Assembly: GCA_046482545.1 (NCBI GenBank)
Contig: JAWOEX010000028.1
Location: 1 to 64,000 of the forward strand
DNA: 64,000 nucleotides
Reading direction: 5' to 3'
DNA from: Candidatus Thorarchaeota archaeon
GTDB taxonomy: Archaea > Asgardarchaeota > Thorarchaeia > Thorarchaeales > Thorarchaeaceae
Every line of letters starts with the position of its first letter. Position 1 is the stretch's first letter. The notes under the pieces were generated by a model. It saw only the letters and a program-made list of their open reading frames with translations. It had not been told where the DNA came from and did not search any database. Below, piece after piece: positions 55,323 through 57,015 of this stretch. Made by a program: the position numbers and the translations under genes.

Positions 55323-55422
55323 CTCCTACTCCTTTCTAAATAGCAAGGGTCAACACCGTCCCCGAATCATGAGTAATAAGTATTATCGGGACAAAAAACG
55401 GACAATAGGCCATTTGAATAAG

Positions 55423-55580
55423 TATATATGCACACAGGAGTGAGCATCTTTATACAGAGCAATATTGTGTTTGATTCGATTCGGTATAGGAATGTTTGTA
55501 GCATTTTTTCTGATTCTTATCATCTCAATGAGATACAACTCAATATTGAAAATTAACTCTGTGCAATAGGCGAAATAACA
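55423..55580 (+). promoter_or_regulatory. TATA box plus long structured 5' leader of cold-shock gene 1
   Basis: TATATAT at 55423; TACAGAG/CTCTGTG closing stem; paralogous to 56417-56575. Confidence 0.7.
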
Positions 55581-55793
55581 ATGGTAAAAGGAACAGTAAA
55601 GTGGTTTAACGCAAGAAAGAACTTTGGTTTTATTGAGCGAGAAGAAGGCGAAGATGTCTTCGTTCACGCCAGCGCAATCGAGAGCAATCGATTTCTCAGT
55701 GAAGGCGACAGAGTCGTATTCGAGACTGAGGAAAGCCCAAGAGGACTACGAGCAGTTAATGTAGTTCTTGAAGACGAGGTAGATGAGGTTTAA
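55581..55793 (+). CDS. Cold-shock domain protein (CspA family)
   Basis: [11 protein letters not shown]1 KNFGFI, RNP2 DVFVH, EGDRV. Confidence 0.95.
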
Positions 55794-55848
55794 ACAGAGG
55801 TAGAAGAGAGCAAGCCAACAAACTACTAATCTCACCCAAGTAAACTCT

Positions 55849-55905
55849 GCTTGCGTTTATTCGTGAGCAGTACCAATTATTTTTTTGTTTTTGTTTTTGT
55901 TTTAC
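55849..55905 (+). terminator. Conserved 3' hairpin plus T-tract after csp1
   Basis: GCTTGCG-TTTATT-CGTGAGC followed by TTTTTTTGTTTTTGTTTTTGTTTT; paralog at 56958. Confidence 0.7.
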
Positions 55906-56416
55906 AGTCTCGTGTAGCATGTCGGCCGGCTCGCTGGAAGAGTCGGACAAAATACCATGCTCAACTTTAATCCGGTCAAGGAACATACGCAGGTACTTGA
56001 TATGACATCGTCTGGTGTGCTTCTCCCTTTGAGTGCGCTGTAGTCAATCCAGTGGATTGTTTTCACAGAGTCGGACTAGGATGACGAAAGACACGAAGCC
56101 CGAACCGTGTTCTGACAACATAGAATAGTTCCATGAATTGCAGATAATCAGAAATGCATATGCATCACAAAATCTTGCACTACCAAGACGCTGGCATCCG
56201 TGTCATCCCGCTAGTCGTTAGAGATGAACTCTGGTTTGTGACAATCGTTGTCACAGCAGTCTTGGTAGGTGACATCATCAGCACATACATGTCGCGAAGA
56301 GAAACCCAAACATCGTAACCGTGGATACACCGCCTGTTTCTCAGGTTGACATCATCATCTATCGTTGATGGATGGGAAAAGGAAGAAGGAAAACAAAGCG
56401 ATGAGTATTCCAAAAC

Positions 56417-56575
56417 TATATATGTGCAAATGAGCGCATTTCTAGTATACAGAGTAACATTGCGGTTGGTTTAGATTCGGTCTATGATGTTAGTAGCATT
56501 TTTTCTGATTCTGATCATGTCTCTATGACAAAACTCAATGTTGAGAATTAACTCTGTATAATAGCAAAATCGGAA
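56417..56575 (+). promoter_or_regulatory. TATA box plus long structured 5' leader of cold-shock gene 2
   Basis: TATATAT at 56417; 10-bp closing stem TATACAGAGT/ACTCTGTATA. Confidence 0.7.
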
Positions 56576-56911
56576 ATGTCTAACATGACACAACACGGTA
56601 CCGTAAAATGGTTTAGCGCAAGAAAGAACTATGGTTTTATTGAGCGTGAAGAAGGCGAGGATGTCTTCGTTCATGCCAGTGCAATCGAGAGCGATCGCTT
56701 CCTTAGTGAAGGGGATAGAGTCGTATTCGAGACTGAGGAAACTCCCAGGGGCATCAGGGCTCAACGCGTGGTTCTTGAGGATGAATACGACGAGGAATCG
56801 TACGAAGCATCCAAGGAAGACTTCGCAGAGGATGACCTAGAAGTAGAAGAGGACCTGGAAGTAGAAGACGACCTGGACGTAGAGGATGACCTGGACGTAG
56901 AGGAAATCTAG
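56576..56911 (+). CDS. Cold-shock domain protein with an acidic repetitive C-terminal tail
   Basis: GTVKWFS, KNYGFI, DVFVH; tail (D/E)DL(E/D)VE x4. Start at 56576 or 56585. Confidence 0.93.
56831..56902 (+). repeat. 4 x 18-bp coding tandem repeat (DDLEVE-type)
   Basis: gatgacctagaagtagaa / gaggacctggaagtagaa / gacgacctggacgtagag / gatgacctggacgtagag. Confidence 0.9.
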
Positions 56912-56957: not shown

Positions 56958-56997
56958 GCTCGCGGTTATCCGTGAGCAATATTTTCTTTCTTTTTTC
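56958..56997 (+). terminator. Conserved 3' hairpin plus T-tract after csp2
   Basis: GCTCGCGG-TTAT-CCGTGAGC followed by T-rich sequence. Confidence 0.7.
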
Positions 56998-57015
56998 CAT
57001 CTAGTTGTCTATCTG

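Follow-up and report, generated by a model that had tools for sequence, protein, structure and literature searches.

A genus-specific structured 5' leader with compensatory base changes precedes the cold-shock-domain genes of a Thorarchaeota lineage

Introduction

The 5' untranslated region (UTR) of Staphylococcus aureus cspA reportedly forms a long hairpin that is processed by RNase III and governs mRNA stability and translation, with feedback from the Csp protein. In Escherichia coli, the cspA 5' UTR (Rfam family RF01766) is described as a thermosensor (Giuliodori 2010, cited in PMC5378194), and the 5' stem-loop of its cold box is credited with stabilizing the transcript at low temperature (Xia 2002, cited in PMC1636342). 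Among archaea, Methanosarcina mazei zm-15 provides a precedent for cold-related mRNA stability that depends on the leader: long 5' UTRs are described as stabilizing its mtaA and mtaC mRNAs under cold conditions (Cao 2014, cited in PMC5378194).

The stretch of DNA analyzed here (the window, 64,000 nt) belongs to a Candidatus Thorarchaeota genome of 3.05 Mb (98.9% complete), and carries two cold-shock-domain (CSD) genes, csp1 and csp2, in tandem on the forward strand. To our knowledge, very few cis-regulatory mRNA structures have been defined in archaea, and we know of none in Asgard archaea. The original prediction for this locus, made from the nucleotide sequence, held that both genes are preceded by copies of a structured leader with compensatory changes, and that this leader is an independent archaeal RNA thermosensor.

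Like the leader of E. coli cspA, those described here are predicted to be long (about 130-160 nt) and structured, lie directly before a small cold-shock-domain gene, have been duplicated along with the csp paralogues, and combine a helix at the predicted 5' end with a U-rich single-strand target. Unlike it, they are driven by a promoter of the archaeal TATA type, place the ribosome-binding site (RBS) outside every predicted switching helix, and yield equilibrium folds that are flat with temperature; the two leaders have neither sequence nor structure homology. The S. aureus leader shares with them a long 5' hairpin, but is bacterial and unrelated in sequence, whereas the M. mazei mtaA and mtaC leaders precede different genes and have no defined conserved structure in common with them.

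Results

The first gene, csp1 (55581-55793, + strand), encodes a 70-aa CSD protein (PF00313), while csp2 (56576-56911, +) encodes 111 aa, in which the CSD is followed by an acidic repeat tail; a genome-wide search returned these two as the sole CSD hits in the genome. A further in-frame ATG of csp2, at 56585, falls where the b-type paralogue starts in the alignment. When the DNA of 60 relatives was searched, the combination of leader and csp gene was recovered in two other species of the genus only, with three copies in each. The eight resulting units represent three types of paralogue (a, b and c), of which the window's genome carries a and c; all alignments below comprise these eight copies, drawn from three closely related species (the window's genome, G000, together with G001 and G002). 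The tail of c-type Csp proteins (56790-56911 in csp2) is an acidic, low-complexity region of E/D-L-E/D repeats, and whole-protein length varies by species (111, 99 and 146 aa), with a tandem repeat expansion in G002.

Homology between the units extends from the TATA box to a terminator hairpin with T-tracts, where it ends (at ~55892 for csp1). Downstream of csp1, a likely terminator (55847-55903, +) comprises a hairpin at 55847-55870 followed by several T-tracts; that of csp2 (56958-56998, +) comprises the hairpin GCTCGCGG..CCGTGAGC and a T-tract. The best explanation of this layout is that each csp gene forms a self-contained unit with a promoter, a leader, a coding sequence and a terminator of its own. 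Most csp copies carry a G+C-rich hairpin of the form GCTCGCGG-NNNN-CCGTGAGC 3' of the gene (CTGCTTGCG..CGTGAGCAG in csp1), trailed by one to several T-tracts (including loci L014, L020 and L022), while the c-type copies of the two sister species have another hairpin at this place. Such a 3' end of hairpin and U-tract is bacterial in appearance, although the host is an archaeon.

The spacer of ~500 nt between the two units (55893-56400) contains no ORF longer than 77 aa and no homology to the csp regions of the sister species. A remnant of a third csp copy was considered here and rejected, as the spacer is not homologous to the sister-species units and the genome contains only two CSD hits. Minus-strand ORFs at 55383-55667 and 56471-56764 were likewise rejected, as reverse readings of the conserved csp gene and leader that the 1-nt indels of the leader would break.

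A TATATAT box lies upstream of both genes (55423-55429 and 56417-56423), at a distance of 158-159 nt from the start codons (ATG at 55581 and at 56576). It is preceded by purine-rich, BRE-like bases in the putative csp1 promoter (55418-55429, +) and by CCAAAAC in that of csp2 (56412-56423, +). Across the eight copies, a TATATA(T/A) box follows purine-rich bases upstream of the sequence (T/G)(A/G)TACAGAG, with which the leader opens after a spacing of 28 nt (seven copies) or 29 nt (one copy). The intervening 21-22 nt are unconserved (mean identity 0.57, no better than unrelated flanking DNA), and leader conservation sets in abruptly 28-29 nt past the box in every copy. The transcript is predicted to start at this onset, where archaeal RNA polymerase should begin, and the length of ~129 nt given for the 5' UTRs rests on this predicted start. 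No conserved, promoter-like AT-rich box was found near the csp ATG in the eight-copy alignment. Genome-wide, TATA-like hexamers are most frequent 40-70 nt before the ATGs of long ORFs, so that a csp leader of ~129-130 nt is unusually long for this organism.

The predicted 5' UTRs span 55451-55580 (csp1, +) and 56445-56575 (csp2, +), are 81% identical to each other, and score 131.7 and 150.3 bits, respectively, with R1, a covariance model built from the eight leaders. In the RNAalifold consensus of these leaders, a three-way junction precedes an open, A-rich tail, and minimum free energy (MFE) folds of individual leaders agree with it: both csp1 (-28.6 kcal/mol, z -1.7) and csp2 (-34.2 kcal/mol, z -2.8) adopt the same architecture, with z-scores that are modest for single sequences. 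The folded domain comprises ~115 nt, starting 0-2 nt from the predicted 5' end, which is closed by P1, a consensus helix of 7 bp (UACAGAG with CUCUGUA). In csp1, P1 pairs 55453-55459 with 55557-55563 (TACAGAG/CTCTGTG); in csp2, 56446-56454 pairs with 56552-56560 (TATACAGAG/CTCTGTATA). P2, of 8 bp, joins 55460-55467 to 55541-55548 (CAATATTG/CAATATTG) in csp1 and 56455-56462 to 56536-56543 (TAACATTG/CAATGTTG) in csp2. P1 and P2 are separated on the 3' side by a purine-rich bulge of 8 nt (6 nt in two copies), located at 55549-55556 in csp1 and 56544-56551 in csp2. A K-turn in this internal loop was considered and rejected, no G-A/A-G tandem being seen by eye.

Within the junction, P3 is an interrupted hairpin of 19 bp (55473-55521 in csp1) and P4 a short hairpin (55522-55534). 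The inner block CATTTTTTCTGATTCT is common to both leaders, at 55502-55517 and 56497-56512; these positions, on the 3' strand of P3, are those of a U-rich block, CAUUUUUUCUGAUUCU, that is near-invariant in all eight copies, with a 1-nt insertion in two. The original prediction had named the TATATAT boxes, the alignable leaders, the closing and second stems, a U-A to C-G double change between the two copies and the shared inner block, and each of these was recovered when the sequence was checked.

The consensus fold leaves 13-17 nt before the ATG unpaired; this A-rich tail (55564-55580 in csp1, 56561-56575 in csp2) holds the ribosome-binding region. Its SD-like site in csp1, AGGCGA, occurs 7-8 nt before the ATG in the a-type copies and in that of type b from G001, and is one mismatch away from AGGUGA, the complement of the 16S rRNA 3' end (GGAUCACCUCCU). 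The 16S rRNA match of the window's genome, on contig C2 (258-1487), covers model positions 1-1478 within just 1230 nt, and a second, partial match lies at the end of contig C33 (32736-33767); these matches may reflect an internal deletion, a misassembly or two rRNA loci.

Conservation of the leader was compared with that of the remainder of the unit, using mean identities over the 28 pairs of copies. The leader (0.78) equals the core of the coding sequence (CDS; 0.78), and is therefore kept as strongly as the protein sequence, in comparison with 0.55 at synonymous third positions, 0.52 at four-fold degenerate sites, 0.57 in the TATA-to-start spacer, 0.55 in the 60 nt upstream and 0.52 in the 150 nt downstream. 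Purifying selection acts on the leader; sites that went through the same duplication and conversion are much less conserved. Its best-kept stretch is a block of ~45 nt around CAUUUUUUCUGAUUCU, whose conservation beyond the needs of pairing suggests sequence-specific recognition.

The consensus pairing also withstands comparison with controls. Over the eight copies, standard pairs occupy 96.6% of cells, vs. 38-52% when partners are slid by 1-3 columns, and five pairs (8 cells) change on both sides, vs. 0-1 in the slid controls. Of 500 shuffles, none equaled the observed covariation score or the number of cells paired, and 13 equaled the number of pairs with a double change. These changes identify the leader as a conserved structured element with real compensatory changes at csp genes, as originally proposed. 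Compensatory base pairs in excess of controls are what a structured cis-regulatory RNA of generic type displays, and here the signal lies in P2, where four of the eight pairs have changed on both sides, with G-U or mismatch intermediates (C-G/U-G/U-A, A-U/G-U/G-C, C-G/U-A and U-A/C-A/C-G). P1 is nearly invariant, P3 varies by G-U exchanges only and the register of P4 differs from type to type; double changes are absent from P1, P3 and most of P4, which are conserved or changed on one side. Junction and loop columns are free to vary. We count about four independent compensatory events, and power is low with eight related sequences; that the events are few reflects the small number of sequences, their origin from three close species and the exchange of sequence between paralogues.

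Such exchange is apparent when G001_a (L014) is compared with G002_b (L020:1300-2000), which are 0.92 identical in the CDS, 0.86 at four-fold sites and 0.75 in the 3' region, and just 0.77 in the leader, a mosaic that indicates recombination or gene conversion whose breakpoint lies close to the start codon. The units being duplicates, and sequence having passed between copies, the similarity of the leaders might be a residue of recent tandem duplication and of conversion between paralogues, with no function of its own. We hold this to be very improbable: leader identity far exceeds that of four-fold sites (0.78 vs. 0.52) and also that of the spacer and flanks of the same duplicated units, the P2 changes are compensated, and variation is concentrated in the loops.

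An upstream ORF offers another account of the conserved sequence. All copies have an AUG at +40 to +42, from which a frame of 13-25 codons (M-L/F-V-A-F-F-L-I-L-I...) runs; its translation would unwind P3, P2 and P1 and tune translation of csp. A similar hydrophobic peptide is encoded in six of the eight copies, and in those of types a and b, 11-15 nt separate the end of the uORF from the csp ATG. The frame is not kept, however, in the two copies with 1-nt insertions after codon 6, and c-type copies stop after 13 codons. Nor is there a synonymous bias among the copies that remain in frame (~3 synonymous vs. 6 non-synonymous differences in codons 1-12, counted by eye). The AUG itself lies within a helix and is abutted by AGGA at zero spacing, and frames of such lengths are expected by chance. 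As a leader peptide or regulatory uORF, this frame hardly deserves credence.

The longest T run of the leader measures 6-7 nt in every copy, with the U6 at about +52 to +58, just past the hairpin at the tip of P3. Premature termination, or cleavage by aCPSF1, might occur at this run, with read-through being modulated; for example, Csp bound to the U-rich nascent strand could act in the manner of an antiterminator, which would make attenuation a specific version of the explanation that we favor below. All eight copies keep the U6(7) run at the same place and length, and it is longer than the four Us that define the shortest of the U-tracts that serve as the archaeal termination signal and are bound by aCPSF1 (PMC8716108). 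CSD proteins bind U/T-rich strands (PMC1636342), and the csp genes' own terminators consist of a hairpin with multiple T-tracts. The leader, by comparison, offers one tract only, the first Us of which are paired in the fold. Termination efficacy in archaea grows with the number of U-tracts bound by aCPSF1, a single tract leading to partial termination (PMC8716108). Moreover, 130 runs of T6 or longer are tolerated within the 1.68 Mb of long ORFs, and T6 runs are only mildly depleted on their sense strand (T:A of 1:2.7, vs. ~1:2 expected from composition); a lone U6 is therefore unlikely to terminate strongly, and would give partial termination at most. Attenuation is thus a possible but doubtful mode of action for this leader.

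The original prediction's further claim, that the leader is a thermosensor, fared less well. As such, it would refold between low and moderate temperature and thereby change translation or stability of the csp mRNA without protein factors, the behavior reported for E. coli cspA. The presence of a long leader on a cold-shock gene fits this proposal, as do helices rich in A-U and G-U pairs, complementarity between the U-rich block and the RBS/start region (-6.4 to -12.2 kcal/mol over the eight copies), and a 5-bp alternative pairing of the U-run with GA(A/G)AA of the internal loop. But the consensus fold pairs neither the RBS nor the AUG, and the predicted probability that positions -18 to +3 are unpaired (mean 0.4-0.7) hardly shifts from 4 to 45 °C. 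In ensembles predicted for 4-65 °C, both closing helices (P1 and P2) remain formed up to about 55 °C and melt at ~55-65 °C. A zipper-type thermometer (ROSE, fourU) is not apparent in a leader whose RBS tail is unpaired and whose closing helices melt in that range, and a melting-type thermometer is unsupported because predicted folding holds steady over 4-45 °C and does not sequester the start region.

Refolding into a second structure also found little support. The alternative stems of at least five columns that can form in at least seven of the eight sequences comprise only P1, P2 and three short stems devoid of double changes, so that no alternative helix covaries, and the pairing of the U-block with the RBS region weakens in some copies without compensation. 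One such pairing, an anti-RBS switch of the U-block with AAUCGGAAAUG (csp2-type, about -10 kcal/mol), was rejected as weaker and uncompensated in other copies and absent from the MFE folds and ensembles. The E. coli cspA switch is kinetic, and equilibrium predictions do not cover kinetic folding; direct sensing of temperature by the csp leader nonetheless appears unlikely.

Relationships to known leaders were sought with covariance models. No Rfam family reached its cut-off anywhere in the window. The cspA thermoregulator model (RF01766), a comparison proposed alongside the original prediction, scored 21.5 bits (cut-off 78) against leader plus CDS, and the part aligned with high probability was the CDS and not the leader; the leader alone gave no cspA match at E≤10. 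In the reverse direction, a scan of 151 Asgard genomes with R1 returned the eight known sites only (122-157 bits), leaving the 148 other genomes without a match. Nor did R1 detect a copy upstream of 83 csp loci from bacteria and Asgard archaea, or of 30 more Asgard loci searched with filters off; the best match among these 113 scored 16.5 bits (E=0.25). Because the Rfam score is below cut-off and R1 is blank at bacterial csp genes, the leader is not a diverged bacterial leader that traveled with the gene, and its proposed independence from the bacterial cspA leader stands. Its designation as an archaeal motif is apt as regards the TATA promoter and the Asgard genome in which it resides, but not as regards breadth, as it is confined to eight copies in three genomes of one genus and absent from the other 148. 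Scanning metagenomes for the signature ACAGAG..TTTTTCTGATTC..CTCTGT yielded 16 stretches, which were rejected as chance matches with no csp gene nearby.

The csp genes are themselves unusual in this lineage. A search with PF00313 detected CSD genes in 205 of 400 Asgard genomes, and some families nearly always carry them (133/135, 14/14 and 17/19 genomes). In the window's family, a protein search of 60 members together with Pfam found them in just three of 85 genomes besides the window's own: those of the two sister species, and a third, 9% contaminated, whose gene is divergent and lacks the leader. Because CSD genes are rare elsewhere in the family, csp genes and leader look like a gain of this genus. 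Closer public relatives of the Csp proteins (P0001, P0003, P0004, P0006 and P0007) are 87-93% identical, and the best matches outside are 72% (a MAG labeled Korarchaeota) and 64-68% (bacteria). The patchy distribution of CSD genes suggests that the genus acquired csp recently.

A second conserved csp leader was found in another Asgard family, f12, whose MAGs are labeled Promethearchaeota or Odinarchaeota. It measures ~165-195 nt, and extends from a CCTATAA box to the csp ATG (loci L034, L036, L038, L044, L045 and L016; 1306-1503 in L034, L036, L038 and L045, and 632-829 in L044), with a canonical GAGGTGA SD at -12. It is unrelated in sequence to the csp1/csp2 leader and gives no R1 match. In its predicted fold, UAGUUUC pairs with the SD-to-AUG region; the five copies compared contain no double change and are too similar for covariation. 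In family f9, the largest that bears csp genes, a crude scan placed a TATA-like hexamer starting -28 to -26 from the TTG or GTG of many csp genes (L142-L148, L153, L155, L163, L166 and others), among which tandem pairs are common; judged by this spacing, many f9 csp genes look leaderless or short-leadered. With a leader in f12 and seemingly none, or a short one, on many f9 genes, long structured leaders are thus recurrent, yet not universal, on Asgard csp genes.

Discussion

The csp leader described here is real, selected and structured, and it is both new and lineage-specific. We consider it probable that this genus-specific leader regulates csp mRNAs in cis, acting like the csp leaders of bacteria but being unrelated to them. 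The predicted mRNA would begin with a fold of ~115 nt, in which a three-way junction, closed by P1 and P2, bears P3 and P4, and continue with a single-stranded, A-rich tail of ~15 nt bearing the ribosome-binding site. By hindering decay that depends on the 5' end, the base-paired terminus could set the lifetime of the mRNA, and the U-rich strand, weakly held by G-U and A-U pairs, may be the site for a single-strand-binding factor.

That factor might be Csp itself, in which case expression would be autoregulated; the affinity of CSD proteins for single strands rich in T/U is in the nM range (PMC1636342, PMC1904285). Alternatively, the U-tract-binding termination factor aCPSF1, of which a Lokiarchaeal orthologue is functional (PMC8716108), could bring about premature termination or cleavage. 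A leader that governs mRNA lifetime is favored because the predicted 5' end is paired from nt 1-2, an arrangement shared with the cold-box stem-loop of E. coli cspA, the U-rich strand, six Us with pyrimidine-rich sequence after them, is of the type bound by CSD proteins, and U-tracts are aCPSF1 sites. Nothing in the predicted fold points to temperature sensing.

A bolder version, to which we give little weight, would make the csp leader a self-contained Asgard switch, independent of cspA, in which cold or the level of free Csp decides whether the U-rich strand is paired, bound or cut, and thereby sets read-through, half-life or translation. If this were true, no cis-regulatory stress-response RNA would have been defined in Asgard archaea before it, and the leader would exemplify convergence between domains. 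Small size, sharp boundaries and eight natural variants with their compensatory mutations should make the element easy to test in vitro.

The reach of the leader is limited to one genus, in a family otherwise devoid of csp genes. That a selected csp leader is unrelated to its bacterial counterpart nevertheless suggests that long, structured cold-shock leaders arose more than once, and such repeated origin would point to a general need for post-transcriptional control of the abundant Csp RNA chaperones.
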